The notes: a model not told the origin generated them from the sequence alone. DNA of 49,210 nucleotides from Nemertoderma westbladi (GCA_032718475.1 JAUCBJ010008806.1:1-49210), one strand, 5' to 3'; shown: positions 4,226 to 45,240, numbered from the stretch's first letter. A program made the numbers and translations.

Positions 4226-4690
4226 ACGCCCCAATAATACTATACTCCTCCAGATGGAACTGATACTGGGAAGGCCTACTCCTTTACAGTATTTGTTACC
4301 ATTTAAAGATGCATTGCAGTGGCTCAGTTAGCATTACTATTGTGGTTATTTATTATACCTATGTCCTCAGTTTGCCCTTCACATTCTAGCACTATTTGTT
4401 TACAATTTTAGGCAAACTATTAGTGAAAGTACGTTATGAAGAAGATGGCCTCATACATACAGTAAATGCAACATTGATTGGTGAAAAGGTTATAGGTTAG
4501 TAAAAACTATTACACCTAATAATATAATAGTAATAATAATAATAACAATAGTATAGATAACAACAATAATCAAGCAAAGGCGTACAGGAGCTATATATAG
4601 ATATTCCCTCCCACCACCACCACTACCCCTTTAAACCAATAGGAATCTAGTTTGTCTGTTTGTCAATACAGAGTAAAATTAATTTGTCAA

Positions 4691-17789: not shown

Positions 17790-18935
17790 TGTTCGCGCTT
17801 TTAGACCTTTAGCAGTTTAACCTGCCAATTTTAGGTGTCTTCTTGTTTATAAATCGACTTTAGCCTATAACAACTGTTTAGTACACATAAAGTAACATTA
17901 GCCGAAGCCAGTCTATCCGCGATCATTCACCCACTGTTAAGGGAGACTGGATTCGGATGCTTTGATCTTATTGCGGTGCAGACCTACTGTATTATTCGAT
18001 TGATCGTTACTATATAATCCCTGACAATATTATTCACTTTCGGGGAAATATTAACAGTTCCTTTAGGACGTGGCGCTTTAAATATATAAAACACAGTTAT
18101 GACTTATACTAAACACAACGCGATAGCTATTGAGTTTCGTAAAAGGCGCATTCTTTAGGAGATGCCTTATTATCTGTCACACTACTGCACACAATTTCAA
18201 ACCACTTCACACTGATTTGCCGACCGTCACTGAATTTGATTATGAAATAGCATTTACTTCACACAAAAACCTCTATAATGTAAGTCGCAATTGCTACCGG
18301 TTACCGGCCCTCTTACCTTCAATAACCAAGAAGATTGGGGTTTTATGATTATTTATCGTTATTCTCCAAATATAACAACATATCCATCCATATATATCAA
18401 TTAATAACAGACAGTAAACAGAAGTAAAATAATGCGGTGAAATGTATGTGGCCAGTGTTGATTACAGTTTTTTCATCAGGTGCCAGGGTGCAGTTTGTTA
18501 TCCGGCAGATAATAGGTTTACGTTTCTATAATCAAAGCTATCTAATGTTCCGGTCAAAGTCTGAAACTTCCACAGAAGCACAGAAGAATCCTAAGCCGGT
18601 ATTCTGGGCTTGGAAAAGATAAACACTAACACTGACATGCCTAGTACGGTTTACGTAGGCTCTTGTCCCACATAAAATGAAAATCGCTCTGATTGGCTGA
18701 GCCGAACAAAGAACAAAGAAAGGTTCCACGTTGGCAGTAAATCAGCTGACAGATGTCGTCATCTGAGTTCCAGTCTTTAGAGTATTATGCGCATTGCGGC
18801 AAAAATGGCTTGTTAAGTCCGCTAAAGCACACATGCAGACATAGCGGGTAAAAATGGCTTGTTAATGTCCGCTAAAACACCTACACGGTATATTGCGGAG
18901 AAAAATGGCTTTTTACATCCGCAAAAGCTTTTACA
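17790..18935 (-). repeat. 3' LTR of Bel/Pao element A (~1146 bp)
   Basis: Minus strand begins TGTAAAAGC after the PPT and ends GCGCGAACA at the satellite junction. A diverged inverted copy lies at 36268-37426. U3 has ~50-bp tandem repeats and a CCAAT box. Confidence 0.85.
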
Positions 18936-18943
18936 CCGCTCCC
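18936..18943 (-). promoter_or_regulatory. Short polypurine tract of element A
   Basis: Minus strand GGGAGCGG abutting TGT of the LTR, just after the extra ORF stop. Confidence 0.65.
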
Positions 18944-18961
18944 AGAAAATGGGATTTGAGT

Positions 18962-21900
18962 CTATAAAATATACAAAATCACAGTTTCTAAAATATAAGA
19001 ATACTCTAAACTACTAGTCCTTCTTATGTGAACGGCGTTTACAATGGCGCTAACAACCTTCAGAGCGTGTTTTAAGACAGCAGCTCTTACTGGTCCCTGA
19101 CGAGTCGTCTGTACGAGAGCGGTAGGTGGGCCGTGAGTAGTGAGAAACTTCCTCGGTTTGATGGTTCTTTCCAACTCACGTTCTCGGGCTCTATTTTCAT
19201 AGGGTCGCCTATGAACTTCCTGTAGTTCTGGATGCGAGTTGATGAACAAGTCACCGTATTCCGGATCTTGATGGATGAAGTTGATCAAGTTATAGGAATT
19301 AAGATCATTGGGATTAATGTTCCTGAGATATTTACGAACAAATTTGGTCGAAATATTCTCGCCAAGACGCTTCATTAGTTCGTAACTCGGTGTGCGAGAT
19401 TTTTGTTCAACGGATGCGAATAGATACGGCTGGAACGCATAAACTCCTTCATATGCACGTCCAGGGTATTATCGATGACGTGACTCACAATGTAGATCCG
19501 CGTTCGCTTCCCAGGCTCGAATGTAGCATAAGGTAATCATTTCATCTACGCTTTCCAGATCTCGGTTAAAAGGGCAATCAAAACTTGCATGTCCTTTAAA
19601 CTGACAATGATGGCATTGAGTCATAAATTGGGGGCAGACTGCGAAAATGTGCAAGTTATTGCATCTGCAATACGCACAATAGATATCCATCGTAGGTTGT
19701 TCACGGAAGTAGGAGCAGGGTACATTGGAGTCCACCGGGGTGAAATGGTCTCGAGATGCGCATAATCGGCAATGTTTCCTAGAGACATAGTTGGCATGCC
19801 GATAATCGTACGCGGTGAGACATTGTGGACCTTGATACCATTCCAGGACATAGTTGTTGTCACTGCTCCGGGGTGATGTTGGTTGAATCTCCTCGGATTC
19901 AAAGCATATTGGTTTGTCTTCCAAATGCATAGTGGAGATAGGTGTAGCTGTCTCCTCAAGCGAACCCAGTGTCTGAACTTCCACGATAGAATAACCCGTG
20001 GGGATTCGGGGTCTTTGTATAACAGAGGAATGTAAGTTCTGTATACAAACGTCCTTGAAAATGGCGAATCCAGCACTGTCTAACTTCTCAGCAGCTGAGT
20101 CTCTTAGGCTGAGCTTGGTCAGAGCGCAGTCCTTGAACTGACTATCAACGTTGCGGAACGGTGTCAGAAAGCGCTTAAAACATTTGAAGCGGATGAATTT
20201 ATTGTGTTCATCTAGCTTGGCGAGTTAGGTTCCAAGCATTAAGGGATGGGTGCGTATAGTACGACTGCACACATCGGCTAGCCAACCGGCAAGTGCGGCG
20301 TTCTCGAGGATAGTGTACATAGCTAATGAGGGACGAAGGGGACCACTCATAAAGCTATACACGATGCCAGGTGCGGTCAATAGTCTGTCGAAGTATAATC
20401 GAGAATAATGATCTCCATATACTTGTTGATAGTTGATAGGGTTTCCGACTTTGAAATTCCATCCGTATTCTTGGAAGGCAAGATGTCCGATGGATGTTCA
20501 TTGTACTCTATTGATGCCGCTGGGTGTATTGGCATACATAGTTCGGAAGAAACCTCGGCCTTCTGCCCATAGAGCAATCAGCTGGGTGTCTACGAAAGGA
20601 TATGGGATATTCTCCATGTTCCTAAAGTCGTTTTGGAGGTCTCCATAAACAGCTGAGCCGATTTTAAGAATTCTTTCGTTAAACAATATTTCGAGCACGG
20701 GCTGGGGTAACATCGATCCATCTATACCCATGGCCTGTTTGTGCTCGGTGTCGGTGATGTAACGCTGCGCGAGTTCGAATTGTCCATGTCGTAGTTTCTT
20801 TTGTATCTCGGTGAGAGTCTCAAAAGAATAACCAATCACGTCGGAACACGCTCGAGTAAACACGTGGGTATAACCAGCTAGTCCTCGTATATGTATCATG
20901 CGCATAGTTCCCAGTTCTCCGACCGGAACGCTACCTTCGTTATCGTAAGTGACAACTCCATACATTTCGATAATGTTAAGAGTTTCGTTCCACTCTTTAG
21001 TGGCGTTCTCTAGGGTCATCCCCACCGGATGCCATAAGATCTCCATCTCCATATCTTTGTATTCTCTCTTCCTCGAATAATACGTCGAGATTCCAATGGA
21101 CTAATCGAGTTTTAATAAATCCATCGAGATTATACGGAGGCGTGATATCCTTCTCTATTCTGGAAACATTGTAGGGTTTTCTGAATGAGTTTACTTTCAC
21201 TAACTGATCCAGATGTTTCTGCAATTGTTCGAGTTCGACAATATCGAGAGGATTTATTAGTGGTAGAAACCTTAGACTATGTGTCGGATCTTCAGGTTTT
21301 ACCATATAATATTGAGTTAGATTGACATAATAAGGGTGGTCTTTGATCCCATAAAACGAGTTCGGTAAAGGTCTAGCACGTATGTTGACCTCGTGTACCA
21401 TACGACGGACAAGATCCGCTCGATTGTCTGGAGGTTCAACGAGTATAGCGTCGACGCGTCAGTCATAAGGATTTGAGCTTCGGGTTGGGCTAAAGCTGCT
21501 TCCTCTCTCTCATCCATTTCGATGTGTTTCTCCTCGAGCTGATTTTCCTCCGCCCGTCGTTGTAAGTGTTTGTCTAAAAACTCTTGTAGAGAATAGGTTC
21601 GTCCAAGTTCGATGTCTTCCTCGAGGTTCTGGATTTCTCTATCGAACTGGGGTAAGGCCAATTCCTTCACCGCTTGGACTGGTTGCTGCAATTTGCGTTT
21701 CTCTAAACAATCGTAAGTCCCTTTTCCGATCTTCTGCCGAATAGCGTCTAACGCGTTTCGTACAACGCTCTCCTCGACTTCGGTGACTGGTTGTATCGGG
21801 GTTAAACCGGGACGATTATATGGGTTGAACGGCAATATTAAATGTTCGCGTCCCAATCCGGTTAGGTAGGATGGGCGAATATCTAGAGAGCCCACTACCG

Positions 21901-22881
21901 GAGTGCCACCAATTAATTGTTCGGGTAACACCAGATCTTTGAACAGTGAGTACAGTTCGGGAGGATCCATGATACTATTAGGATCAAGAGTTTGAGGTCT
22001 CACTAGGGAATGAGGAGGTCTGACCGAGTATTCCGGAACTCTGATCATGGGTTTATTTAAGGATCGTTTTAGTCGAGCGAGCGTAGGTGACTCGTCAAAC
22101 AAGTTTCGCTCGAAACTCCCGTAAGTATAGAGAGTATAACTGTGTTTAGTGCAACGTCTCCGGGATGTTTATATCTTTCTGTTTGCTGGTTGGGTCTAGG
22201 GCATTCATCGCAATAATACCAAAGACGCACGTCCTGTAGGGGAAACACGGGTGATCATTCTCCAGTTTTACAATATTCCTCCATATGTTCGAAGCTATCC
22301 GGGACAACAGGTAGCGGTCGATCGGCGGTAAGATACATCATAGTAAAATAGAGAGCCGTTTGAGTTCTATCATAGGGTTTATGATGTATACCTTGAGGAT
22401 ATCGAGTTTCTAGATTTTGTTGACTGGCAATATTGAGATATGTTTCTCTCAATAATTCCAGATATTCGTTGAAGTCACTGCGTTTATCCGGCACTTCAAC
22501 ATCTTCTGTTTTGAGTCGGTTTCGAATAGAATTCTCGTGTTCGATTCTCGGTTTATCGTTCCGACTCCGCTGGGTATGATATTTAAATAGAACCATTTCC
22601 CTTTCGGTGTCTACATCGTCCATATCCTGTAAATCGATAGGATGACCAGTAGTTAAGAAGTCCATATACGTACCATTGCGATGCATATAGCGAGCGGTGA
22701 ATTTTCTATAGTCCAATTCAGGCGTGAGTTGTTCTTTTGACATTGGCGGTTCGATATAACGGCCATCGTCCTCCGTAGTGGGTTGACTAGCGTCGCCGCA
22801 TATTAAACTATCAACAAATGCTTGCAATGGTAGGGTATATCATTCCCTGATACCAAGATCATCTTCTATCAACTCAGTCAT
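18962..22881 (-). pseudogene. Accessory ORF of element A: unknown N-terminus, DEDDy 3'-5' exonuclease-like domain, tandem CCHC zinc knuckles
   Basis: ATG at 22881. Track ORFs join via read-through of stops and about three frameshifts; 21052-18962 is one frame with three internal stops. ExoI-like YGVVTYDNEG, ExoII-like LPQPVLEILFNERILKIGSAVYGDL, FVDTQLIA, SIGHLAFQEYG, ExoIII-like PLRPSLAMYTILE; CRLC..H..C, CAYC..H..C, CHHCQFKGHASFDC. Confidence 0.8.
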
Positions 22882-23703
22882 AGTTGTTGTATGAGTTTAT
22901 CAATATTATAATCAATTATATTTAGGCTAGCAGTCTTCGCTGCCTACCCCTCAAGGCCCCCAGACAGCGCAAGATCCTCAGCGCTGATGTACTGTCGTCG
23001 CTGTGCCTCTCGCCAACGTAGTAGCTACACAACGACAACAATAACCAGCGCGAGTCACTCCACTGTCCGTCCCAAGGGCTTAAATTTACTTCAGGTTCTT
23101 GCTACAGAGGTAGGGCAACTTTCACAACTGTGACTCACTACTGTAAACACACTTTAGTAGTAACATTCACCTATAAACGCACAAATTCCCCACAACTGTC
23201 ACAAATTGTACACATTCGGGCCATTTGTCCGTTAGTCAAGTGCCTTCCAGAATGCCACGTTATTATTATGTATCCCTGGATACTAGCAGTGTGCTATTTA
23301 TTCCGTATGCTATTCAATGGGGCAAGCTTTCTATTGTTCGTTTAACTCGCTTCTAATTCTAGCGTGGTTGTTGCTATGGTGACATTATGGAAAGCTAGCA
23401 GTAGAATTAGGGTAATTCTCATGCATACAGATCTGGGATGCTATTTAATAGTAATTCTTTAATTGTCAATATTCCCCTTTATACATGATTTTATGAATTT
23501 TATCGGCTATTGACTATATATTGGAGATTTTCTCACACCAATATACTTAATAGGGTGAATCTCCGCTCCCATGATCTAATAATTAATGGAATTTTGGGAA
23601 TGTTATAAATTGTATAAAATGACAATTTATCAAATTCATGAGAGGATATGAATTTAAATTTATTCCCGTAAATTTTATTATTTAATATTAAAATAGACAC
23701 AAT

Positions 23704-24080
23704 TTTATTCCAGAGCATGTCTGGGGACTGGGATCCTTGATTCTAGGAAATTTGTCCTTTTAAGAGTATCGGTAAGTGCTATGATATCTTAATCGACTAG
23801 AATTTTAAAGGATCTAAATTTTAACAGATTTTGATTTATAGATTTTCTTGGTTTGCAAACTCCTTAGAGTTTATTAGTATGCATTTACTCTGTTATAACA
23901 TTTGTTTTAATAGATTTTTATAAATATTAACTATGTAATATTTAAGATGGGCACCGATTTATTCCAGAACTTGGCTGGGGACGTTAACCACTGATTCTAG
24001 AGTTTGTCTTTCAAGTATATCGGTGGGTGCCGCGATATCTTAATCTACTAGAGTTACAAATGGTCAAAGGGTTTAACATA
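23704..24080. repeat. Diverged direct duplication (~125-bp core, ~253-bp spacing) in the pol-ORF3 spacer
   Basis: TTTATTCCAGA...CTGGGGAC...TGATTCTAG...GATATCTTAATC.ACTAGA occurs at ~23704 and ~23958. Confidence 0.7.
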
Positions 24081-24608
24081 TTTATTTTGCGTTTTACGCT
24101 ACTGTTAACGGGACATCACGCTACTATATGTATTATTTAATATACGGTATGAGAGCAATATTGCAAGAAGCAATGTCAGTGAGAAGAGGCAAGTCGTCTC
24201 CAAGGTCTACCCAGAGCTTGGTTTAGCTGAGACACGAGGATCTGAACTTTGCATTCCTAATACTCTACTTACCAATAATACTTGAGTATAGTAGGAGCTT
24301 TATTGTACTTTAATAAGTACGGACATTTCATCTTACTGTAGTCACGTATTTATAATATGATACGGACAGTAAGGAAAGAGAAAATGAATTATTTCTCGCC
24401 GTTGCACTAAATATATAATATAAGTAATGAAGTAATAAACACGAGTATATCTATTGCACTAATCTACTAAATAATCGCTAAAATAACATTCTACTAAATA
24501 AAATTAAAGAAAACGATTATAATAAAATTACATAATAATACATACATAAATATAAAAATAATAAAACAAATATAAAATAATATAGTCACACACCCACTCT
24601 GTACGTTG

Positions 24609-27600
24609 CTACGTTGGGGAGTCCCTAGATGTTTGTTGGATTAGGGAAGTGGTCGTGGGAAGAGTATCTTGCCTTCCATAGTTTCCGGATAGTTCTCTGT
24701 CTCTTTCCAGTAAACATAAACGACCAATTGGGCGATTGAGCTGCTGCGTTTCGAATACAATTCCAGGTTTCTTAAAGTTACGTCGCATAATGATGAGTTC
24801 TACCGAACGCACTAAACCATCATCGGATATATGAGTCTCGATGATACGACCTGTCTGCCACCGCTTACGTGGAAGATCTGATTCCACAATAAGGACCATG
24901 TCTCCAGCACTGACGTTTTCTTGCTGCGCAAACCACTTGGTTCGAAGTTGTAGCGTAGGCAGATAATGTTTTTCGAAATGGTCAGCGAAACGACAGGATA
25001 ATAACTGCATAAGTTGCCAAGTTTGTCGGCAGTATTCGTCTCCGTCCATGATTTCTGATTGTGGGAGCATGGCGACAGGTTTCTTCAGTAGGAAATGTGC
25101 GGGTGTTAGCGCTTCTAGGGAGTCGGGACTCGATGAGACTGGCATAAGCGGTCTCTCGTTAAGATAGGCGGCGATTTCCTCCATTAACGTCCGCAAAAGT
25201 TCGTCGGTGAGATACGCACGGCAAGGCACTATAAAGTGAAATGCAGTCTTCATGCTCCTTATCAATCTCTCCCAACTTCCTCCCCACCAAGGGGCGTCGG
25301 CGGCGTTGAAGGTCCAGCTAGATACTGTTACCCTTAGCTGATCGTCTACCTGTCTTTGGTTCCAATCTCTAACGTAAGCTTTGATCTCATTATCGGTGCC
25401 AATGAAGTTCGTTCCCTTATCAGATCTCATCGTGTTGCTAGTTCCAAAGCGAGTGATCTGTCGGCATAAACTCAGTATGAAGCTGTTGGTAGATAGATCA
25501 TTCACTAAATCTAGATGGATCGCTCTACAAGTCATACAGACAAAGATGACACACCATCGCTTGACTATAGTCCTAGCACGATATACTTCAATAGGGCCAA
25601 ATAAATCCACACCAGTATTAGTAAAGGGTGGTTCATAGAAGCTTACTCGTTCCCTAGGTAATTCTGCCTCTCGCTGTGTTAAAGGCCTACTAAATGCTTT
25701 CCTACAGGGTATACAGTTCCTAAGAACTTGGTTCAGAGCTCTACGGGGTTTATGAAAATAATAGCAAGTTCGAATTTCGCTAAGAACTCGTTCTCTACCA
25801 GCATGGTAAAGCCTACTGTGAACATCTACAATCATCTTGATTTGTATTTCAAGATTTTTAATGAGTATGGGAAATTTAGTGTCAAAGGACAATGGAGCAT
25901 TAGTTAGTCTCCATCCAACACGTATTAACCAATCTATCATTGTGCTAGAGAAACGATCCCTTAAGCGCGTCTGTGGATTTCTCAACAACAGGAAATACTT
26001 ATCGGAATCTTCATAGCATTGCAGGAGTCTCAGTATCTGCTTATTGGTTTCTTCATGCTCCTGGTAACTGATCTTCTCCGTCAGAAACCGCTCCGATACC
26101 TTGTATTTGGGAAGATCTTTAATAGCATGGACCTGTGCAGATGTCAGTGTAGGGGTATCACTAGCAATCTTCGTCCTGGAGTAGTGATGATGGAAGCATT
26201 GCTTCAAATACATGACGGCCTTACAGAGCCGATTCCAGGAGCTATAGTGATTTATCGCTCTCTGCAGGAGAGGTGAGAGTCCCTGCGAGACGTCTGGCAT
26301 TCCAGATTTCCAGTCCCTTTCTCTGATTTCTACAACAAATTTATTGGTGGCGGTTGAGTTTAGATTCACAGCGTCGTTCCCGGAAATGTGTAGTACAGAC
26401 AGATCTATCACGGGTTTGAATAACTTTGATTTACTTGTCCGGGTTTTATGTTTGACTTTCTCCGCTCCCTTGGCTTGTCTAATCTCAGCTGTGGTGAAAT
26501 GAGGAGGCCATTCATCCTCTTCTTTGCTTAGGAAGTCGGGTCCACCTAACCAGTCTGGAGTATCTATCAGTTCTTGAGGAGTTGCTCCTCTGGAGGCGAT
26601 GTCGGCTGGATTAATCGTCCCAGGGCAATGTCTCCATTGATCTGCATTAGTGCGACTAAGTATAATGGCTACTCTGTTGGTAACGAAGAGGCTGAACTGA
26701 CAGACTTCATTGGTTATATACTCCAAAACGAGTAAAGCATCAGTCCAATAAACAGTTTTCTCCAGTGGATAGTCGATCTGTTCTGTTACATTCCGGCCGA
26801 TGGCTGTAGCGTATAGAGCCGCCTTTAACTCTGCTCGAGGAACTCGTAGTTTGTTGTTTATCAAGGCCTTAGAGGTAACCAAGGCAACTTTGATTCCATC
26901 CGGAGTTTCAACCCTCAGGTAGGCTACTATACCTATTCCCATATTGCTGGCTTCTCCAAACACATGGAGTTGATAGGAATACGTGGGGAGAATGTGACCA
27001 AAATATGAATGGGAAATAATAAAGTTCTCAATGGAGGGTAGAGAATCTTCCCATTTCATCCACTTCTTTATTAGTTCTCCCTTAAGTGGATCGTCCCACG
27101 AGTGGTTTTCAAGCCACATTTGTTGCACTAAGCTCCGACCAACTAATATAACTGGGCTAATAAATCCCAATGGATCGAAATAAGTGCTCAGGATACTTAG
27201 ACAAATCCGTTTAGTTCGAACTGGATTATCTCACTTTTTTAGCTAAAAAAACAGGATATCTCTCTCTGTGTCCCATTTCAAACCAAGCGTCTTGGTTTCC
27301 GGAAGATCATCCTTGATAAGGTCCAGATCTTTAACACCTCGATCTTCCACCGGGATCGATTCCAGAAACTCACGGGAGTTACTTGTGAATTTGGTTAGGC
27401 GAAATCCACCGCGTTTCAAGCACTCTACCATTCCCTTGGCAACATCAATGGCTTCTTCCACCGATGGGAGGGACTTTAAATTGTCGTCCATGTATATATC
27501 CCGTTTGATGTTGTCGATAACCGGTTTAGAGAAGGCGTCTTGGTTGTCATCAGCAGTGGTACACACTACTGAACAAGCGTTTGAGGGGCTCGAGATGATC

Positions 27601-28932
27601 CCGAAAGCCTGGATGGTCATCCAGTACTCCACCGGTTTTTGGTTGAGGTCTCCTTCAGGCCACCACAGAAATCGTAGGCTGTCTCGATCCCTATCCAGCG
27701 CCTTAACTTGTAAGAACATGCCTTCTATATCCGAGGCGAAAGCAATAGAATATTGCCGTAATCTTGTGAGTATTCCCAACAAGGATTGGAGTAAGTTGGG
27801 TCCCGGCAACAACTCGGAATTAAGGGATTGGCCCATGTAAAGGGCGGAGCCGTCGAATACTACCTGGACTTCGTTGGATTTACTGGGTTTGGGAACGTAA
27901 TGATGTGTTAGATAATACGTTCTCTCAGTTATGGGTGTTTCTTCCGGTACTCGCTTCGCGTATCCCTTATCGATGAATTTCTTCAGCTGGGTCTTATACA
28001 TGCAAAACGTGTAGTCGTTTCCTGGATCTGCTTGGCTCTTTCCTCCTCGACAGATAGAGCCTTGTCATAGGAAATTAGGCTCTACAGCTTCTTGAGTAAA
28101 GAATCGTACGGCGTGTTCATCGCGAATTTTATCGTTGTATCGATCTATCACCTCGTTTAGCTCGTCGTTGTAGTCGAATTGTCCGCCATGATTGACAAGA
28201 TGGCACAGTTGCATTTGGTTTCTCCAAACTTCACTCTCGGTGAGGAGGTCGTGTGTATTTTCCTCGTCAAATAATTGGGTAATATCGTCGTTATCTGATG
28301 AGTATGGTGTTCCCTCAGGTATGGTCTCTCCCTCACTGATTTCTTCTTCCCATTCACTTACCTGAGATATGTGATCGGTAGGTAATCTTTCTATGTGTGT
28401 TCTACGGGAAGGTCCAGTGAAGTACCAACCTACTCTTGTTCTTCCCGCATATGTTTGCAATGGTTGTGGTCGAGCAGGCCATTTTTCTAATGTCTCAAGC
28501 GCCTCATGCGCATTTTGGCCGATCAATATTTGCACCCCTGGGTAGTGTTGAATCTAGGGATATTATGTTGCTGGGTAAAATGGTCTTCATCCCAGTTGTA
28601 AGGTTCCACTTGGCTGGTAGCAAAGTTCTTTATCGCCACCATTTTTACTGACCTGATGCTATTTCTCCTAGTTCATCCTGGGGAGTGGAAAACGCGCCTA
28701 CATAGTAGTCTGTAGCTACTGTAGATTTCCAAACCTGCATAATTCCTGAAAGGTTCAACTTAGTTCGGAACTTGGGTTGTCCAGCAAAGATGTCTTCAGC
28801 TAGTTCCTTGTCGATGAACGTTCCTGTGCTGCCGGAGTCCAGGAGGGCGTTTACTATAAAACTCTTCGCTTTCCCGTGGACTCTCAGCTGAACTACTGGG
28901 AATTCACGAATTCCGACGTTGGAGGTTGGCAC
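24609..28932 (-). pseudogene. pol: Bel/Pao pol (protease, RT, RNase H, integrase), disrupted
   Basis: ALLDSGSTGTFI protease; GPNLL, DIEGMFLQV and YMDD RT; LHVFGEAS, PRAELKAA and NPADIASRG RNase H region; PFTNTGVDLFGP, SDKGTNF, APWWGGSWERLI integrase. Several stops and frameshifts. Confidence 0.93.
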
Positions 28933-28990
28933 TTTCCAAGATGGTTGTCGGTCCGGAATGGTCGGTTGAGCTTCATTATCGGTGTCAGCA

Positions 28991-31900
28991 TCAGCGTGTC
29001 AGTGTAAGCGCTCGATACACCGCGGTGTTTATCATATAACAGGATTCGTTTTCGTTGGAGAATTCGTCCGTGTAAAATCCTTCCATCTCAGAGCTGTGGT
29101 CAGTGTCGTTCACCTCACTGAATTGGACATGTAGTTCGGACTCACTTACCTGACTCAGGCTAGTTCTTTCAAATTCTGTGTGCAGCAAGATATGATGTTT
29201 CGCGCCGCACTTAGTGCACCTCGTGTCCGAGTAACAGGTCCGCTGTTGGTGTCCTTGTCTAAGATCATTATAACACAACCGCTTATCCCACATGACATCA
29301 CGTCTATCCTTTAGGGATTTCTTTAAGAACTCATCACATCCGTCGCACAATGCACATTTGGGTTTGATGTTACTTACTTTAACTTGGGTAGTGTTGTGCA
29401 CACTTGTTCTTTCCTCGGGCTTTCTTCCATGAATTCTCTTAGGAGACGTAGGAGGAGTTTTTGTTACCTGTTCTCTCCTGTCACTGGTTCGAGACTTAAA
29501 TTTACTTACGTCTTTAGGTGCTTTGTTGACATAGTAAGATCTATTGGTGTCTTTCCCGCTGTTCTCTTCCTGGGAGGTTTGGCTTTCGCCGTCGTCTGTA
29601 TAACATACTGGTATTACCTTTCTCCTAGAAACGGGTTTTTCACTTACTTTATTTTCCATTGTCTTCTCTCGGGACTGCTTTAGGAGCTGTAATCTTACCT
29701 CTCCATTCAAGAATGACATGAGATCAGTCATGGTAGGGTCTCTTTGTTGCTGGTCCATCATATAGAGAACTCTCTTATCCCAATGCGTACCTACTCCACC
29801 CTTCGGCAAAGTAGATGCTACGGCTCCAACAACCATAGAACTCTGATATTCGTGAGACTTACCTAGCCAATCTAACTGTCTACAGATCTCCTGGATCTCA
29901 TCGGAAAATTCTATAATCCCGCTGCTAAGAAACTTCCGGGGCGCTACTAATTTCGCATACAAATACCTAGCTATGTTAGTCCTATTACCATACCTGATGT
30001 TTAGTGTATCCCAAACTTGTCTTAATCCATCTGGATGTCCAATAAACTTTAATGCCATTAACTTGGGAGGTCCTTCCAAGCACTCGATGAGGAATCTAAG
30101 TTTCTCTCCATGGGATAGTACGGAACTCTGTATGTTATCTTTATAATATTCATTAAAAGGCAACCATTTCATCTCATCTCCATTGAACTTGACGATCTCT
30201 CCCACCTTTACCGCTTGACGGGCTTCAGTTCTTGCCATTTGACGCGTAAAACTTTCTTGGGCCATCGTATTATTTAATATCGAGTTATCGGTATATAAAT
30301 TTCTCGGATTATGATCAGGTCTATATGGAATATCATTATCAACAGGTTTATAATTATCCTTAATAGGGTTTACTATAGGAGTCTCTACTTCACTAGCAGT
30401 ATAGATGCATGTAGGCTCTACACCTTGCACATGAAATACTTCAGACCTAACAGGTTGACACATTGTTACAGGAGGTGGTGGTATACCCTTTTGTATATTT
30501 ACTAACTTATCGTGTTCTAACGGATACACTTCTTGCAATTCTAACCTACCCTCTCTTACTGTTCCCTTCAACTGTTGAACAGTCCCCTCCAACTCTCGGA
30601 CCTGCTGGGAGGAACGTGCCTGATTTTCCTCCATCTGCCCAAGCAAGAGATCCATCCCCCGCCGTCGCTCATCCACCCAATCTACCGCCGAAGCGGGAGC
30701 CGCCAACATTGTAGCGGGTAGACGAGGGACGACGGGCGATAAATCATTAATGTCTCGCTCGGCGTCCAGGACCAGAATTGACTTAGGAACTGTCCTACTG
30801 GGCACAGGTAGTTTAGTACTGTGCAAAGGGAATTTAGAGTTAGGTTCTGTAAGTACAGGGGTCTCTATCACAGAGGGGGTGGCTTCGAGAACAGGCCTAA
30901 TTATTTCAGGCTCATCCACTATAGTAGGGAGTCTTTCTATTCTGATAATTTGGTCTGTGTGTTCTGTACTACCTAAGTCTGCACTAGCTAGTTGCCTTCT
31001 CACAGCTGGGGGCAAATCAGGCAATTTCTGACGGTGGGGCGTTCTTCTATGTCCGCTGGAATGGGATCTTTTTCCTCCGCCTTCAGGATCTGTTGTATCG
31101 CCTTCATCAGATGATGTAAATCCCTGTCTTGGGAGTAGATTGACTCATTATCTTCCACTGACTAGCTGTTCTCTGTTTATTAAAGTAGTCTTTCTTCTCT
31201 TGAAGATTTTCCAACTTTAGTTGGGTTGTCCCTTCAGATGCTTTCTGTTCTGCTTCTACCGCTGCCGCTTTTCTTTCTGCCTCTGCCACTGCCGCTTTTC
31301 TTTCTGCCTCTGCCACTGCAGCTTTTCTTTCTGCCTCTGCCACTGCAGCTTTTCTTTCTGCCTCTGCCACTGCAGCTTTTCCTTCCGCTTCTGTCGCTGC
31401 CTTTTGGTCTTCTATATGTTTTTTCTTTAATTGTTCTTCCTGTTCTCTAGCGATGAGGATGCTTTCATCAAATTTAGCCTGCTCTGTGGCTAACATTTCC
31501 GCATCTAATGAGTCTAACACAAATTTGGCTCGCTCACTTTTAGGGTGAAGTCCAGCTAGCCGTCTCCTTAACTCTTTGTCACCTATAAATCGTTGATAGT
31601 CCGACAGATAGATGTCAATAGCGTCCTTCTTCTGAGGTTTTTCGGTCGTAACTTCGCTTTCAACTTGAGAAAAGGCAGCGTCTGTTGATTCTCCTTGGGT
31701 CGAGCGCTCGGTTAGCTGAATTTTCCATTGGGCCATTCCTTGGACTTTAAGACTCACCCATTGGAACTAAATCTTTACGGCGACTTGCAACGACGTGTCT
31801 TGGCTTCTCTTCGAGGCTTCCTCAAAGGCTGACAGGATTAGTCTGATCCGTACAATTCGTTCGCGAACTTGATAAAGCAGCTCTCCCTGCTCTTGAGGTC

Positions 31901-32585
31901 CGTGAGGTTGTTGAAACAGGTGTTCCTCTAATCGCTCCAAAGAGCTGAAGAATCCCTGGACATATCCTGCTGCTGACCTCTTCCACACAGCGGGATCTCG
32001 AGTATCCTTTACTACTCCCATCCGGTATAAGTCCTCCCAGGCAGCTTCCGATAAGTTAAACGGGAGTCCGGGTCCGGGGAAGTTCCATTGCGCCTCGACA
32101 ATAGACCTCAGTTCTTCCATTGTGTATCCAGCATAACTATCTTTGGTTGATCGCTTACTTCTCGCCCAATCGATTTGATGTTCTTCCATAGCGATCAATA
32201 CTCTAGTGAGTATGGCTTCAGGAAGAATGAGAAGCGGATCAGAATAAACTGCTTCTGCCATCTTCGCTCCGATCTCGGGTGTCAACTCTACAGTATCTGA
32301 ACTACTGGAGCTATCGGACTGCTGAGAAATAAGTTCTCGGTTCGGGTGTTGCTGGTGCTGCTGTTTAACAGCTGCCTCTTGGTCCCACTTGACTTGAGCC
32401 CGCGTGCCTATAATAGACCTACGGTGCTTAACTAGCCTAGGGTCTGATACTACTACTGAAGGGATGACCTTTCTTACAGTAGGAGGGGACTTGGACTTTG
32501 GTCTCAGATGTTCTGCACTCCTGTCTGAGTCGCAGACTGTTCTTTCTAGGAGACTATCTGACAGAGTTTGCTTTGTGTCAGCCAT
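28991..32585 (-). pseudogene. gag: Bel/Pao gag with long N-terminal extension, disrupted
   Basis: KFNGDEMKWLPF, EKLRFLIECLEG, LNIRYGN capsid-type motifs; LCYN...GH...C...CTKCGAKHHILLH knuckles; nonsense codon at 31767 and frameshift near 31130 relative to copy B. Confidence 0.88.
31245..31400 (-). repeat. 27-bp coding repeat (AAVAEAERK)n in gag A
   Basis: Visible in ORF 31107-31757; related but different expansion at 40848-41095 in copy B. Confidence 0.85.
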
Positions 32586-32933
32586 GTTTGATTGTGCAGT
32601 TGAATGCCTACTACTATGACGACAGTTAAAGCAAGTCTAGTAATTCAGTATCCACTGTAAGCCTAGTAATTAATTACCGATACCGTTACTCAGTGTAGCG
32701 TGATATATATAATATATTAAAATACCGGTATACACTTATAGTATATATAAGTATGGTTACAGACTAGGTTTAGTCACAGAATACCGGTATATAATTTCAG
32801 CCTAAATTTATATAAATATATATAATATATAATATATTTATAATAATACAATTAACCGATAAATCGCCAGGGACTGCGGCTTTTAAATCTGCTGCTCAAG
32901 GTATTTGAATGCGAATGGGATACTTCCGGTAGT

Positions 32934-36267: not shown

Positions 36268-37426
36268 TATTTTCCCCGCAAAGTACTCTGTAGTTGGTTT
36301 AACGGGCATAAAAAGCCGTTTCATTACTGTACTGGTGTTTTAGTGGACACAAAAAGCCATTTTATCTGTATGTGTACTTTAGCGGACATAACTAGCAATT
36401 TTATGTCGCAATACGCTAAATCCTCTTGAAACAGTGTAGTTACTATGACGACAGCTAACAACTGATCTGTACACGTGGAGCTTTTCTTTGTTCTCTGTCG
36501 TTTCTTTGTTCGGTCAACCAATCAGAGCGTTTTTTGACTCTGTGTTGGAGATTGTATACAGAAACTCATGCAATTGAGTCAGTATGTGTATTTTGTCCAC
36601 AGCCAGAAGACCGGCTTTGGAATCTCTGTGTTTTCAGGCTTTAGCCCAACATTAGTAGGCTTAATTATAGAACGTATATCTGTTATCAATGCTCACACGC
36701 AACATATCTCACTCATCTCAATCTATCATATCATAACAATTTATACCTTAAAATTTATACTGCTATTGAGTGTCGGTTATTCATTATATCGGTTGATGGA
36801 ATATGATTATATTTGGAACATCGATAAATAATTACAAACCACTCAATCTTCTTGATATACTGAAGGTAAGAGAGACCGGTTACATATAACGATTGCGACT
36901 TACATTAAAGTGGTTTTGAAGTGAATCTAATGCTATTTCATAGGCACTACAGGTATCAGTTGTTGTTCTCTTTATATGTGACTAAAATTAGTGAAGGTCG
37001 GCAGATCGGTGTGCAGTATTATGCAGTAGTGTGTATGATTGTGACTGATAACAAAGCATCTCCTAAAGAATGCGCCATATACGTGAATCTATAGCCATCC
37101 CGTTGTGTCTAGTTTAAGTCATAGCTCTGCTTACATATTTAGAGCGCCACGTCCTAAAGGAACTGTTAATATTTCCCGAAAGTGAATAATATTTGTCAGA
37201 GATTATATATTACGATCAGTCGAATAATACAGTAGGCTTACACCGCAATAAGATTAAGCTTCCGAATCCAATCTCCCGGGTATATCCAGCGGGTGAATGG
37301 TCGCGCATAGACTGGCTTCGGCTAATGTAGTGTATCCAATACTCGTCATAGGCTAAAGTCGATTTATTATCTAGAAGACATCCTAATTTGGCAGGTTAAA
37401 CTGCTAAAGGTCTGAAAGCGCGAACA
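36268..37426 (+). repeat. 5' LTR of element B, lacking roughly the first 30 bp
   Basis: Diverged reverse complement of 17790-18905; ends AAAGCGCGAACA at 37426. Confidence 0.82.
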
Positions 37427-37772
37427 ATAACAGATATTAATTCTGATTGCAGTGTAGGCAATAAATACAGTTTACTATTGTTCTGGTAAGAACAATAACA
37501 GATATTGCTTCTTTATTGCAGTAAGCAATAAAGCTGAAGTACCGGTCGACCGGTAACCTGTAGGCCTAACTACGTAACCACCGGAACCGGTACTTACAAC
37601 AGTATAGGTACAGCAGTATTATTCGATTTTGATAATTATATACCGGTAGGTCTTGATATTAAATCGGGGACGCCTGGTTTTTATTGGGATTTTACTTAGG
37701 CCTATTTCTGTCAGTTTTATTCATTTGTAGGCTAATATTGAGCAGAAGGCGTGTAAGCCTGCTCAGATCGTA

Positions 37773-38357
37773 CAGATAATTTGTAGGCTGGACTGTTGTC
37801 TGACTGTTGTTAGGTCTGAACGGATTGCAGTGCATGTAGAGTGTATGTCCGATAAAGTGCCGGTTAGGAACGTAGGGGCAGCCAGAGCTGTAAGGTAAAT
37901 CCCCACCGAAAGAATAACTCGTACTACTAGGTTAGAACGCATACTAACTAACCATTTCGGAGTCTGCATGTCCTGTAGTTTATTTAGGCTTGATAGTAGT
38001 CTGCCAGCGTTTGGTCTGTACTTTGTTTGTGTAGTCTGTACAGGTACCGTAATATTTCTTATTCAGATAATTTATAGGCTAGATTGTTGTCTGGCTGTTG
38101 TTAGGTCTGAAGAGATTGTAGTGTGTGTAGAGTGTCTGTCCGATAAAGTACTAGTTAGGAATGTAGGGGCAGCCAGAGCTGTAAGGTAAACCCCCCCCGA
38201 AAGAATAAGTCATACTACTCGGTTAGAACGCATACTAACTAACCATTTCGGAATCTGCACATACTGTAATTTATTTAGGCTTGATAGTAGTCTGCCAGCG
38301 TTTGGTTTGTATTTTGTTTGAGTAGTTTGTACGGGTAGCGTAATATTTATTATTCAG
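37773..38357. repeat. 291-bp tandem duplication in leader of element B
   Basis: CAGATAATTT.TAGGCT at 37773 and 38064; second copy ends near 38355. Confidence 0.88.
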
Positions 38358-39690
38358 AGTTTATGCGATTATTCGCAACATTCATAACCCCAAGTTTATT
38401 CCTACAGTAATTGTGCTTGTTATACATACCGTTATAGTTAAATTAACCCCGGTACTACATCAGGGCTGCTCGGCGTAGGTAAAGACTGGTGATTTTGTGC
38501 CCCGGTCACTCCGGCAGATGCCGTGGTTCTTTTAGCTGTACAAGTATTTCTAACTGCTAGTTATTGGTTGTACAAGTACTTGTACCTAATTTAGGGTTTA
38601 GTGTACAATACTTTCCGAAAGTAATTTAGTGTGTAAGCAGTATATTTGTGTTGTAAAGTGGTTAATAGGCACGTTGGTTCTGGTAGACCGCGGTAATTAA
38701 CTTCTAGGTAGGGACACTCCGTGAAACATAACGTAGTACTTATAGCGATACGGCTATAAGTCGTCAGACTATGGTATTTTCCTATCTGGACAACGCAATA
38801 TATTTACTACTTGTTATTTTCAAATTCCGTAGTATCCTGTCCGTTGTAATAACCAGATTTCTAACCCTTTGTTAGGCTGGTTTGTAGATTCCTTGTAAAA
38901 TTACCCTAAAAATTTGTATTTGTGTATTTGTAATTTTTTTGTGTTTATTTAGAGATTGTAATCTCACCCCGAATTGTACGTAATTTGTAGTAATAAGTAA
39001 CTTAGGTAAATTATAATTATTTGTTTTAGTGTCCAACAAGTAGCACTTTACTGAGAGCGCACAGCTTCTGTGTAGTGACTCCTCCCCAGAAATAATAACA
39101 TTTATTTCAAATATTGACAAAACCCATTAAACGGGTATATATATATTATAAATCAACTCAAACGATTTATAAATAGTAGGCCTGCCATACAACAATTAGG
39201 TCTCAATATCAGTTGGACTACTGCTTAAATAACGGTAATCAAATAAAGTAAAGTAACCAAGTAACCCCTAAAATTCAGAAATTCAATTATTCTAAAATAA
39301 TTGACATACCGGTATTTACAATAGGCTTATTATATTTATTTCTATAAATTTAGGCTGAAATTATACCGGTATTCTGTAATTAATTCTAGCCCATAATTAT
39401 ACTTATATATACTATAAGTGTAAGCTGTATACCGGTATTCACGATAGGCCTATTATATATTTATATATATTTGTGCTAAAATTATATACCGGTATTCTGT
39501 GACAAACCTAGTCTGTAATAATACTTATATATATATACTATAAGCATACCGGTATTCTAATATATTATATATATCACGCTACACTGAGTAGCAGTATCGG
39601 TAATTAATTACTAGGCTAACAGTTGATACTGAATTACTAGACTTGCTTTAACTGTAATATAGCAGTAGGCATTCAACTGTACAAACAAAC

Positions 39691-42600
39691 ATGTCTGACA
39701 TGTTCTTAGATACAACCATCTGTGACCCAGATAGGAGTGTGGAACGTGTGAGAACAAAGTTCAACTCATCTCCTACTGTAAGAAAGGTCATCCCTCCAGT
39801 AGTAATATCAGACCCTAGGCTGGTCCAACACCGTAGGTCTATCATAGGCACTCGAGCTCAAGTCAAACGAGACCAAGAAGCAGCGGAACAGCAGCAACAC
39901 TCGAGCCGAGCACTTATTTCTCAGCGGACCGACAGCTCCAGTGGTGCGGATACTGTAGAGCTGACACCCGAGGGCGGAGCTAAGATGGCAGATGTGGTTT
40001 ATTCAGATCCCCTTCTCATCCTTCCTGCAGCCGTACTCGCTAGGGTATTGATTGCGGTGGAGGAACACCAGATTGATTGGATGAGAAGTAAGCGATCGAT
40101 CAAGGATAGTTATGCGGGATACACAAAGGAAGAACTGAAGTCTATTGTCGAGTCGCAATGGATCTTCCCCGGACCTGGACTCCCGTTTGACTTATCAGAA
40201 GCTGCCTGGGAGGACATACACAGGATGGGAGTAACAAAGGAAACCATCGATCCAGCTGTATGGAAGAGGTCAGCAACCGGATATGTGCAGGGATTCTTCA
40301 GCTCTATGGAGCGATTAGAGGAACAACTGTTTGGACAATCACAAGGACCTCAAGAGCAGGGAGAGCTGCTTTATCAAGTTAGAGAAAGAATTCTAAGAAT
40401 CAGACTAATTTTATCTGCCTTTGAGGAGGCTTCGAAAAGAAGACAAGACACGTCGTTGCAAGTTGCCGTAAAGACTTGGTTACAGCGGGTGAGTCTCCAA
40501 GTTCAAAGAACTGTCCCGTGGAAATCTCAGTTAGATGAGCGCTCAACCCTTGGAGAATCAACAGACGCTACCTTTTCCCAAGTGGAAAGTGAAGCGACAG
40601 CAGAGAAACCGCATAAGAGGGATGCTATTGACATCTATCTGTCAGACTATCAACGTTTTGTAGGAGATGAAGAGTTGAGGAGAAGGCTGGAGGGACTTAG
40701 CCCTAATAGAGAAGGAGCCAAGCTTGTGTTGGACGCAATCGATGCGGATATGATAGCTGCGAACCAAGCTAAATTTGATGAAAGCATCCGCATCGCTAAG
40801 GTTCAAGAAGAACAAGTAAAGAAAAAACGTATAGAAGATAGAAAGACAGCAGCAGCGGCAGTGGCAGCGGCAGAAGCGGAAAGAAAAGCGGCAGAAGTGG
40901 ATAGAAAAGCGGCAGAGGCAGCGGCAGAGGCAAAAGCGGCAGCGGCAGAGGCAAAAGCGGCAGCGGCAGCGGCAGAGGCAAAAGCGGCAGCTGCAGCAGT
41001 AGAAGCGGAAAGAAAAGCGGCAGCGGCAGAAGCGGAAAGAAAGGCGGCCGAAGCGGAAAGAAAAATAGCAGTGGCAGAAGCAGAACGGAGGGCATCTGAA
41101 GAGACAACCCAACTAGAGTTGGAAAATTTTCAAGAGAGGCAAGACAACTTCAATAAACAGTTAACAGCTAGTAATATGCAGATGATGAATCGATCTACTC
41201 CCAAAAGATAAGGTTATACATCATCTGAGGAAGGCGATACCACCGATCCTGAAGGCGGAGGAAATAGATCTCGTCTAAGTAGGCGTAGAAGAACATCTCA
41301 CCGTCACAAATTGCCTGATTTGCCCCCAGCTGTTAGAAGGCAACTAACTAACACAGACTTAGGTAGTACAGAACCCAAAGTCCAAATAATTAAAATAGAA
41401 AGACTCCCTACTATAGTAGATGAGCCTGAAATAATTAGGCCTGTTCTTGAAATCACCCCTTCGGTGATAGAGACACCTGTGCTCCCAGAACCTACCTCTA
41501 AATTCCCTCTGCACAGCACTAAGCTACCTGTGCCCCACAGAACCACCCCTGAAAATGTTCATGTCCCTGACTCCGAGCGAAAAATTAATGATTTGTCGCC
41601 CGTTGTCCCTCGTCCGCCCGCTACAACGTTGGCGGCTCCCGCTTCGGCGGTCGAGTGGGTGGAGGAGGGACGGCGGGGGATGGATCTCCTGCTCGGGCAG
41701 ATGCAGGAGAATGTTAAGCAATTCAAGGGCACAGTAAGGGAAAGTAGGTTAGAGTTGCAAGAAGTGCAGCAATGTATCGCGTTAGAACGCGATAAATTAG
41801 TAAATACACAAAAGGGTATACCACCACCCTCGGTAACAATGTGTCAACCTGTTAGGTCTGAAGTATCTCATGCGCAAGGTGTGGAGCCTACACGCATCTA
41901 TACTGCTAGTGAAGTAGAAACTCCTATAGTGAACCCTATTAAGGGTAATTATAAACCTGTTGACAATGATATTCCCTATAGACTTGATCATAATCCTAGA
42001 AATTTATATACCGATAACTCGATATTAAATAACACAATGGCCCAAGAAAGTTTTACGCGTCAAATGGCTAGAACCGAAGCCCGTCAAGCGGTAAAGGTGG
42101 GAGAGATAGTCAAGTTCAATGGAGATGAGATGAGATGGTTACCTTTTAACCCTATTAAACCCGGGGGGGGGGTCAATATGACCCCCCCCCCGTGGTTTTT
42201 TTATTATAATTCTGAAACAAACGCAGTTGGGAATCTGAAATTTTATGACTTTTCCTAAAAATCTATTGTCTTCCTAGTAGTGAAAACCGTTTTCAAAAAT
42301 ATTGGGTACTTTTCGAGTTATAGCACCATTTTTTAACCCTACTTTTGGCACTTTTTTTGAGACGTTTTTTGAAAATTAAATTTCATTAAATATGAATTGT
42401 AACATCTCTAATTTTGATTTACACCGGTTTTTTGGTGTTAGAAATTTGATGGAATTCATATCAATTGATTTAGAAATTTCAAACTTTTATTTTTCGGCGG
42501 GTACCAAATTTTGGTGCCAGCACCAAATTTTGAAATAAGTCAATTTTGTAAATTGAACGTTTGAAACTTGTTTTTTACGTAATTGGGGTTTTTTGGGTTT

Positions 42601-45240
42601 CTGGATTCGATGAAATATATACGAGTTGCACCAAGCGTATCAAACTTGTATTTTTCGGTGCTGTGTGCAAATTTTGGTGCTTAGCACGAAATTTTGAAAA
42701 TCCATTCAATAGATAAAATTGCTTGTGACAATTTATTTCTTGCGTTTTAGAGGTTTATGGCTGTTCTGAATTCAATGGAAAATATAATTATCGAACTAGA
42801 CATCTCAAACTTGTATTTTTCGGATGTGGGTGCAAAATGTGGTGCTAGCACCAAATTTTGAAAACCATCAAATATATCAATTGATTGTGTCACCTTGTTT
42901 CTTGCGTTATACGGGTTTGTGATGGATGGAAAAATTTCATAAGAGTTCTCAAACTTGTATTTTTCGCCGGTGGGTGAAAATTGTTGTGCCAGCACCTAAT
43001 TTTGGAAAATATGCAAATTGATAAGAAGATAGTATCACCTTGTTTCTTGCGTTATACGGGTTTATGAGGGTCCTGAATCCGATGGAATCAATAAAAACAG
43101 CACTGGACATCGCAAACTTGTACTTTTTGGTGATGGGTACGAAATTTGGTGCTAGCACCAAAATTTGCCAAATTACGCCGAAAAATACAAGTAGCAATGA
43201 TCTGGCATATTAAAAATGTATTCCATTAGAATCAGCGCCCTCGAAAACCTGAAAATGTTAATTTATAGCATCGTATAAGTGAATTAAAAATTTTGTGTTC
43301 TAACTGAAAAGTGCTGGTTACTTGTTTTTTTCATTTTTTTCCTACGCAGAGAGGACTAAACAGCCATTTATAGTAATCATATCATTTTTTAATATTTTCC
43401 AATGTATTTTGCACCCCAGAAAACCTGTATTGAAAAATAATTAGCCGAAAATGTAACTTTCAAATTTGGTGAAAATTGTGCACTACTTGTAATTTTGGTG
43501 CTGCAATATAACCACCCCAGTAAATTTTTTCGAAAATTTTTTTTTTCGGTCGGATCCAGACAAGTGATACCTACGTACAAACAAAAAATCAGACGTTTTC
43601 GTAAATATTTGTAGATTTTAGAGGGGGGGGGGGGGGGGGGGGGGGGGGTCAATATGACCCCCTCCCGGTATTTGTACAACATTTTATAGCCCGGTACTAA
43701 TAGGGTTAATGAATATTACAAAGATAACATACAGAACTCTGTACTATCTAATGGAAAGAAACTTAGATTCCTCATCGAGTGCTTGGAAGGATCTCCCAAG
43801 TTAATGACGTTAAAGTTTATTGGACATCCAGATGGATTAAGACAAGTTTGGGATACACTAAACATCAGGTATGGTAATAGGAATAACATAGCTAAATATT
43901 TGTATGCAAAATTAGTAGCGCCCCGAAAGTTCATTAGCAGCGGGATAATAGAGTTTTCCGATGAGATTCAAGAGATCTGTAGACAATTAGATTGGCTAGG
44001 TAAGTCTCATGAATATCAGAGTTCTATGGTTATTGGAGCCGTGGCTTCTACTTTACCGAAGGGTGGAGTAGGTACACGCTGGGATAAGAAAGTGTTATAT
44101 ATGATGGAACAACAACGAAGAGACCCTACCATGGCTGATCTCATGTCATTCTTAGATGGAGAAGTGAAATTACAGCTCCTAAAGCAGTCCAGAGAGAAAA
44201 CACTGGAAAACAAGGTAAGTGAGAAACCCGTTTCTAGGAGAAAAGTAACACCAGTGTGTTATACCGACGACGGCGAAAGCCAGACTTCTCAAGGAGAGGA
44301 CAGCGGGAAAGACACTGAAAGATCTTATTATGTCAATAAAACGCCTAAAGAACAGGTAAGTAAATTCAAGTCTCGAACCAATGACAGGAGAGAACCGGTA
44401 AGAAAAACTCCTCCTACGTCTCCTAAGAGAATTCAGGTAAGAAAGCCCGAAGAAAGAACGAGTGTGCACGTGTTGCACGCGTGTTGTGTTATAATTGCCT
44501 CAGACAAGGACACCAAAGGCGAACCTGTTACTCCGAAACAAGGTGTGCAAAGTGCGGTGCGAAACATCATATCTTGTTGCACACTGAATTCGAACGAAAC
44601 AGCCCGAGTCAGGTAAGTGATTCCGAACTACATGTCCAATTCAGTGATGTGAACGACACTGACCAAAGTTCTGAGATGGAAGGATTCTATACGGATGAAT
44701 TCTCCGACGAAAATGAATCCTGTTACATGATAAATACCGCAGTGTATCGAGCACTCACGTATGAAAAAGACACTGACAGCGACCTCACCCTAACTACTTC
44801 TGATCGACAACCATCTTGGAAAGCGCCAACTTCCAATGTAGGAATCCAAGAATTTCCTGTAGTACAATTAAGGGTCCACGGACCTAAAAGGAGTTATATA
44901 GTGAATGCCCTCCTTGACTCCGGTAGCACAGGAACATTCATCGACAAAGAACTAGCCGAAGACATCTTTGCTGGACAACCCAAGTTCCGAACTAAGCTAA
45001 ACATGTCAGGAATTATGCAGGTTTGGAAATCTACCGTAACAGCGGATTATTATGTAGGCGCATTGTCCACCCCCCAGGATGAACTAGGAGAACACAGCAT
45101 AAGGTCAGTAAAAATGGTAGCGATAAAGAACTTCGCTACCAGCCAAGTGGAACCTTATAACTGGGATGAGGACGATTTCACCCAGCAGCTTGAAATACCT
45201 AGATTCAACACCGATTACCCTGGAGTGCAAATACTCATCG
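39691..45240 (+). pseudogene. gag: gag-protease of element B, disrupted by a stop, a MITE, a frameshifting deletion and insertion C
   Basis: ORFs 39691-41211, 41311-42145, 43710-44470 and 44481-45240 match A's gag; LCYNCLRQGHQRRTC...CAKCGAKHHILLH; ALLDSGSTGTFI. Confidence 0.88.
42150..43705. mobile_element. Non-autonomous piggyBac-type DNA transposon, 1556 bp
   Basis: TTAA on both sides (42146-42149, 43706-43709), single TTAA at the empty site in copy A; termini CCCTATTAAACCCGGG / CCCGGTACTAATAGGG; subterminal GnTCAATATGACCn near-palindromes; about five 145-165-bp internal repeats; no transposase. Confidence 0.9.

Follow-up and report, generated by a model that had tools for sequence, protein, structure and literature searches.

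What is encoded between pol and the 3' long terminal repeat (LTR) of a Bel/Pao retrotransposon of Nemertoderma westbladi? The element lies on the minus strand of a stretch of 49,210 nucleotides (GCA_032718475.1 JAUCBJ010008806.1:1-49210), here called the window. An original prediction, made from this sequence alone, had placed there one open reading frame (ORF) of about 1,300 codons with a DEDDy-type 3'-5' exonuclease-like domain. We found decayed coding sequence with a predicted domain, followed by tandem zinc knuckles; over the ExoII-ExoIII half of this domain, homology to the RNase D type has good support. With slightly better than even confidence, we suggest that the sequence would encode an accessory protein gripping, and possibly trimming, RNA 3' ends.

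The coding sequence runs from 22881 to 18962 (3.9 kb) in the sense direction of the element and is broken by five stop codons and three frame changes. Six-frame reading divides it into four segments, 22881-22072 (two stops), 22168-21460, 21458-21030 and 21100-18965 (three stops), with the following features.

22072..22881, minus strand: N-terminal segment of the extra ORF, 270 codons from ATG 22881; two premature stops, one CxxC, no family match
21030..22168, minus strand: middle segments in two further frames; Pro-rich, then an acidic helical stretch, then 21458-21030; no family match
20270..21030, minus strand: predicted RNase D-like (DEDDy-type) 3'-5' exonuclease domain; one premature stop at 20500-20498
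19574..19771, minus strand: Cys/His cluster resembling zinc knuckles (CRLC..H, CAYC..H..C, CHHC..GH..C), also present in the related protein P0003
18962..19573, minus strand: C-terminal part of the extra ORF, to the stop codon TAG; one premature stop at 19471-19469

We trained a codon model on the gag and pol frames of the window, excluding stop codons. It gave the four segments +38, +27, +26 and +48 bits in frame, and the other two frames of the same strand -9 to -63. One frame of the opposite strand scored +22 and +16 on two segments, but with 19 and 10 stops. The score is weak, near zero, at 22200-21720. The region is a decayed coding sequence, coding beyond chance. That its pieces form a single ORF of 1,300 codons, as originally proposed, is plausible but unproven: the junctions near 22170-22070, about 21460 and about 21100-21030 are putative. 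An env gene was considered and rejected, as the 19-residue Kyte-Doolittle maximum across the four segments is 1.38, which leaves no membrane-spanning stretch, and no env family was matched.

The candidate exonuclease motifs all lie in the single frame 21100-18965, at the positions predicted earlier: the ExoI-like VVTYDNEG (DxE) at 20956-20933, ExoII ILKIGSAVYGDL at 20671-20636, VDTQ at 20593-20582, SIGHLA at 20494-20477 and ExoIII GPLRPSLAMYTILEN, with the pattern P-L-x6-Y-x3-E-N, at 20344-20300. The best of the 18,950 NCBIfam models was TIGR01388, RNase D (E 0.0052), over residues 133-178 in the ExoII region; the last segment matched two models alone, both of them RNase D (E 0.0052 and 0.058).

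A phmmer search of 1.84 billion representatives returned two proteins at E up to 0.001. One, P0004, is a peptide matched over the knuckles only and was set aside as a relative. The other, P0003, is an intact protein of 648 amino acids (aa) (E 9.5e-6, 29% identity), a singleton from one 9.4-kb ENA contig and the sole relative in that collection with the full exonuclease and knuckle architecture. Its pairwise alignment with the window protein covers the ExoII-ExoIII half (E 1e-12) and then again the knuckles; the similarity after DTQ and that over the knuckles each beat 5000 of 5000 shuffles. P0003 starts just before the exonuclease domain and lacks a counterpart of the first ~600 codons. A resemblance of the end of the 21458-21030 frame to its N-terminus was rejected as not significant (1609 of 5000 shuffles).

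Residues 20-290 of P0003 gave 30 Atlas matches, 25 of them in the PF01612 set. The best match of that set reached 0.94, with 179 shared features and the family on 50% of members; five unnamed Atlas clusters ranked first, at 0.94-0.95. A profile of 27 RNase D domains, taken from bacterial PF01612 members as reference proteins, gave the window protein 19.6 bits, compared with a best of 5.0 in 500 shuffles. With a joint profile, scores and best shuffles were 8.4 and 6.5, and 9.9 and 1.9. The profile of the two proteins (window and P0003) matched RNase D at 92.2% probability (E 6e-7), the maximum among 60 column-shuffled controls being 11.8%. In the reverse search, over 288 ORFs of 30 loci, 24 of the 30 exonuclease ORFs ranked ahead of the first other ORF, although these 24 are related orthologues of one phylum and not independent.

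Several further results weigh against the assignment. The NCBIfam score is 16 bits, whereas the curated cut-off is 299. Pfam, the check suggested with the prediction, gave this copy no exonuclease match, and gave P0003 PF01612 at only E 0.2. PDB sequence searches with this copy and with P0003 found no exonuclease. P0003 by itself reached 8.2 bits with the RNase D profile, compared with 8.1 for the best shuffle, and with a profile of 42 short RNase D-like proteins neither protein scored (this copy -2.4). On the ExoI side the pair alignment is not significant by itself (3023 of 5000 shuffles reach the score), and hhalign in local mode puts the RNase D ExoI on another stretch and register. The canonical D of ExoIII is absent, the motif being YxxxE-N in this copy and in P0003. 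Finally, the extra region has eight breaks in 3.9 kb, compared with at least six in 8 kb of gag-pol.

No exonuclease was found in PHROGs. Word-seeded homologue searches returned nothing with the read-through protein at near or longer lengths, and returned P0003 alone when started from P0003. Metagenome contigs scanned with P0003 and with pol, and viral contigs scanned with the pair alignment and with pol, contained no related locus. Two single-sequence AlphaFold2 models had mean pLDDT (predicted local distance difference test) values of 34 and 33. On balance an RNase D/DEDDy-like domain is supported by four tests, leaning on the ExoII-ExoIII half. Profile homology would make it a member of PF01612, but below the curated cut-offs. 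Among the RNase D/WRN/EXD/Mut-7 nucleases whose motif order the prediction recognised here, the nearest similarity found is to RNase D/PF01612, and none of the tests places the domain with Mut-7 or EXD1 in particular.

The motifs are not equally secure. At ExoII, YGDL and KADL align with the 'Dl' of RNase D, with D in both proteins. At ExoIII, RNase D, P0003 and this copy all have the spacing P-L-x6-Y-x3-[D/E]. The exchange of D for E was noted in the prediction, which took it as making catalysis uncertain; the same YxxxE in P0003, at 29% identity, suggests that the E is a probable trait of the family and not a product of decay. ExoI is the weakest assignment: MAFFT pairs VVTYDNE with ILSIDVE of P0003 in two modes out of three, both stretches following a helix-like stretch and preceding a similar H-x-x-x-L-x-G strand, and the alignment requires a 30-residue insertion. 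As YxxxD is not found, we class the protein as DEDDy-like rather than as a canonical DEDDy enzyme. With E for the last D, metal-dependent trimming and binding without cutting appear to stand at about even odds.

Downstream of the domain, at 19771-19574, we found a feature that the original prediction lacked, tandem CCHC-type zinc knuckles. None of 5000 shuffles matched the cluster, and Pfam zf-CCHC_3 was a weak hit. The knuckles of P0003 resemble those of retroviral nucleocapsid (best E 1e-4) and, weakly, Air2; in the Atlas they fell among CCHC clusters (best 0.87, a lead only).

Such a protein might have kept the RNase D fold for binding RNA only, so that it localises or packages element RNA as a pseudo-nuclease. 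Models would be mammalian EXD1 and Exuperantia, and also Egalitarian, which does not need its catalytic residues; RNA binding by DEDDy-derived domains without catalysis is described in the available text of 10.1101/2025.08.03.668247. The E of ExoIII in both relatives and the RNA-binding surface added by the knuckles would fit. However, both proteins, at 29% identity, have a putative DxE and the ExoII D, and the carboxylate of E could itself bind metal. We consider a pseudo-nuclease of this kind tenable but on the unlikely side, and a domain that may still trim is kept in the preferred reading.

The Bel/Pao identity of the host element, as predicted, is borne out by Pfam domains. The remaining parts of the element and of a sister copy are as follows.

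24609..32636, minus strand: decayed Bel/Pao gag-pol; gag with DUF1759, aspartic protease, reverse transcriptase fragment, RNase H (Peptidase_A17), integrase zinc finger, DUF5641
22882..24608, minus strand: AT-rich non-coding spacer of 1.7 kb from the pol stop to the extra ORF, with stops in all frames and no consistent coding score
18936..18943, minus strand: purine-rich tract resembling a polypurine tract (PPT), sequence GGGAGCGG, adjoining the LTR
17790..18935, minus strand: 3' LTR, TG...CA, about 1.15 kb, matching the LTR of the sister copy
36288..45240, plus strand: sister Bel/Pao copy, cut at about 45240; 5' LTR 36288-37426, leader, gag, protease

The gag-pol, read from 32636 to 24609, survives in seven ORF pieces of at least 100 aa. 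It matches PF03564 (DUF1759; E 8e-12), PF05380 (Peptidase_A17; E 7e-34), PF17921 (integrase zinc finger; E 1.5e-6) and PF18701 (DUF5641; E 5e-20). The domains follow the order gag, protease, reverse transcriptase, RNase H, integrase on the minus strand, the protease and reverse transcriptase matches being weak (E 0.002 and 0.05). DUF1759 in gag, the Pao-type RNase H and DUF5641 after the integrase all characterise Bel/Pao. No frame of the spacer is consistently coding under the codon model; it contains a 165-bp direct repeat (23669-23831 and 23921-24083).

The limits of the extra ORF were located where the prediction had them, with ATG at 22881 and a stop about 20 bp before the PPT and the LTR: the TAG at 18964-18962 is followed by 18 nt, the purine-rich tract and the TG of the LTR at 18935. 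Of the two direct LTRs with a target-site duplication that would bound such an element, the 3' LTR alone is present; the 5' end is lost near 32830 and the element's own 5' LTR is missing. Lacking a direct partner, the 3' LTR is assigned through the sister copy, where 36334-37426 (plus strand), preceding the sister gag, is 71.6% identical to it over 1160 columns. The two gags are 80-90% identical, and their mismatches are mostly at third codon positions (60 of 118 and 48 of 75), which suggests that the copies are subfamilies of one lineage and that the LTR belongs to it. This sequence comparison places the extra region within the Bel/Pao element and in its sense direction, after pol and before the 3' LTR, that is, in the env position.

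The N-terminal extension of gag is unusually long in both copies (31107-32636, minus strand; 39658-41211, plus strand), with ~500 codons, an AAEAERK repeat and no Pfam match. The sister copy has a 5' leader of 2.2 kb with a 295-bp duplication and, in place of an obvious tRNA primer site, a self-priming-like signature (37427-37437 and 36676-36686). At 42150-43705 its gag is interrupted by an insert of ~1.5 kb, whose inverted ends are similar and which contains ~160-bp repeats; the insert is probably a non-autonomous DNA transposon. Between the back-to-back Bel/Pao copies are two arrays of 30-nt units (33783-34459 and 35588-36267), open in frame on both strands.

Elsewhere in the window, the 3' LTR of the element adjoins the end of a 36-nt tandem array of more than 200 units (4690-11775 and 17114-17793), which has several open frames on both strands, with lengths of up to ~2,400 codons, and may be a satellite or a mucin-like exon. 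Inserted in this array is a young Gypsy-type element (17113-11776, minus strand) with 268-bp LTRs of 98.9% identity and a 5-bp target duplication. An AT-rich array of ~30-nt satellite units occupies 330-3610. Another LTR-like element begins at 45330-49210 (plus strand), with a repeat-containing stretch, a long leader and an ORF from near 48450 toward the window end.

The extra segment is not confined to this copy. The stretch was present in four of six listed sequencing runs (one organism label, three studies, all non-RNA), and contigs placed on 17700-27300 covered 30 of 30 bins in each of the four. In run X1, with 37,073 contigs, 6807 were at 99% identity or more, 12107 at 95-99%, 13516 at 90-95% and 4643 under 90%; three runs had thousands of contigs per identity class, down to less than 90%. 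The contigs are short and none spans the whole element, yet their coverage across identity classes indicates that many divergent copies carry the extra region, which belongs to a multi-copy family. Among the 24 loose contig ends listed, with 3097 more beyond these, none fell between the stop and the purine tract, one was at the LTR start 18936 (run X4) and one just upstream of the ATG (17 contigs, run X2). The 16 variant sites in the exonuclease-knuckle frame come from a selected 40 of about 2200 rows and are of no use as a selection test.

Shortened derivatives were also observed. In three of the four runs, a single contig has a joint 19192/19194-21519, with 7 or 5 nucleotides at the junction; the net loss of 2319 nt is a multiple of three with the same frame on both sides, and removes the exonuclease and the knuckles. 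A joint in pol, 24738/24740-26455/26457, loses 1704 nt net, also a multiple of three, and removes the integrase region. Each deletion has a one-in-three chance of being in frame. The joints look like amplified deletion derivatives, possibly non-autonomous.

These data bear on whether the region is one gene of 1,300 codons at all, or two or more adjacent ORFs, or a host passenger fragment evolving neutrally. The three putative frame junctions, the weak coding score at 22200-21720, the missing counterpart of the first ~600 codons in P0003 and the deletion variants could all be read in that way. On the other hand, all segments, read in the sense direction, have a coding score under the codon usage of the element, intron-like gaps are absent, divergent copies cover the region end to end, and the point at which the 17 contigs of run X2 diverge is exactly upstream of the ATG. 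We regard a composite or passenger origin as fairly doubtful.

If the extra region does encode an accessory protein acting at RNA 3' ends, the following mechanism may be proposed. Firstly, the protein would be made separately from Gag-Pol, since the 1.7-kb non-coding spacer precedes its ORF. Secondly, the knuckles would provide RNA affinity, as in nucleocapsid or Air2 proteins, while the exonuclease pocket would engage the RNA 3' end and trim or merely hold it. The substrate would most likely be the element's own RNA or its reverse-transcription intermediates. Finally, the function could be supplied in trans, because variants without the exonuclease and knuckles exist. We infer all of these: expression mode, substrate, catalysis, pocket binding and action in trans.

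In the literature searched, capture of an exonuclease in the env position is published for bdelloid rotifer elements only, the precedent named in the original prediction. The available text of PMC5408684 describes RNase D-like DEDDy ORF3s with the motif DEED, for which activity is not shown there, in Juno and Vesta and in Athena/Terminons; in that text 'Pao' appears once, in a reference. These ORF3s resemble the present ORF in being RNase D-like, in the env position after pol inside an LTR element, without a transmembrane domain and with one catalytic acid altered. They differ in that the present ORF belongs to a Bel/Pao element, its altered acid is the E of ExoIII in place of D, and its domain has some 600 further codons in front of it and knuckles behind. 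By that description the rotifer ORFs are also strongly homologous to DEDDy enzymes, whereas the present ORF is barely detectable as such; no rotifer ORF3 was among the homologue matches of the window protein or P0003.

Compared with RNase D of the PF01612 family (E. coli Rnd; TIGR01388), the domain shares 'L-x2-p-x-I-l-K', 'D-L', 'P-x-x-D-T-Q' and the ExoIII spacing P-L-x6-Y. It differs in that the last catalytic residue is E, ExoI and ExoII are ~30 residues further apart and the stretch before ExoIII is longer; no HRDC domain was detected here, zinc knuckles being present instead. Third ORFs of env type are known from the Bel/Pao elements roo, Tas and Cer7, which likewise have an extra ORF between pol and the 3' LTR, but here there is no membrane-spanning segment and the cargo would be a nucleic-acid enzyme fold. 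Among DNA transposons, Dada elements of Laccaria and Ectocarpus carry a DEDDy exonuclease domain (PMC3706591); there it is inserted in the DDE transposase with all four acids intact, whereas here it is a separate retroelement ORF. In the parts available, PMC6431247 repeats the DEDDy ORF finding for Terminons, PMC6338049 counts a DnaQ-like domain among the accessory domains of LTR elements, with the rotifer paper as one of its sources, and PMC3985635 mentions Bel/Pao for RNase H only. No Bel/Pao element with an exonuclease was found in the open-access literature; Repbase-type repeat libraries and supplements were outside its scope and may hold an annotated case.

A role as an anti-silencing factor that trims or sequesters PIWI-interacting RNAs (piRNAs) or small interfering RNAs (siRNAs) directed against the element seems improbable to us. 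The host DEDDy proteins Mut-7/Nibbler and EXD1 act in small-RNA pathways (PMC5408684, available text) and the element family is abundant in its host, but the domain is not placed nearer to Mut-7/EXD1 than to RNase D, and the bdelloid DEDDy ORF3s have no clear link to copy number in the same text. More specifically, the ORF and P0003 might represent an undescribed family of mobile-element proteins, marked by an RNase D fold with YxxxEN as third motif and by tandem knuckles, that serves Bel/Pao in counter-defence by trimming or absorbing small RNAs of the host. This is a still longer shot; if true, it would mean that an LTR retrotransposon of an animal suppresses piRNA silencing with a protein whose fold is that of an enzyme of the same pathway.

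RNase D trims 3' tails up to a duplex, and trimming of the element RNA to an 11-nt duplex at the primer-binding site for self-priming would fit the sister copy, where the 11 nt after the 5' LTR (37427-37437) are the exact reverse complement of 36676-36686 in the LTR (7 of 5000 shuffled LTRs). We nevertheless regard such trimming as very unlikely: the 3' LTR of this copy has a different sequence at that site, with a match of 8 nt only, elsewhere in the LTR, and the copy's own primer site is lost. The alternatives discussed are not all mutually exclusive with each other or with an accessory protein acting at RNA 3' ends.

That a Bel/Pao element carries knuckles and an exonuclease that is different and highly diverged suggests that retroelements have recruited this fold repeatedly and independently. 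Such recruitment would point to a recurring need, whether to process 3' ends, to handle RNA or to evade small RNAs. With the intact P0003, the old question of what such ORFs do becomes directly testable.

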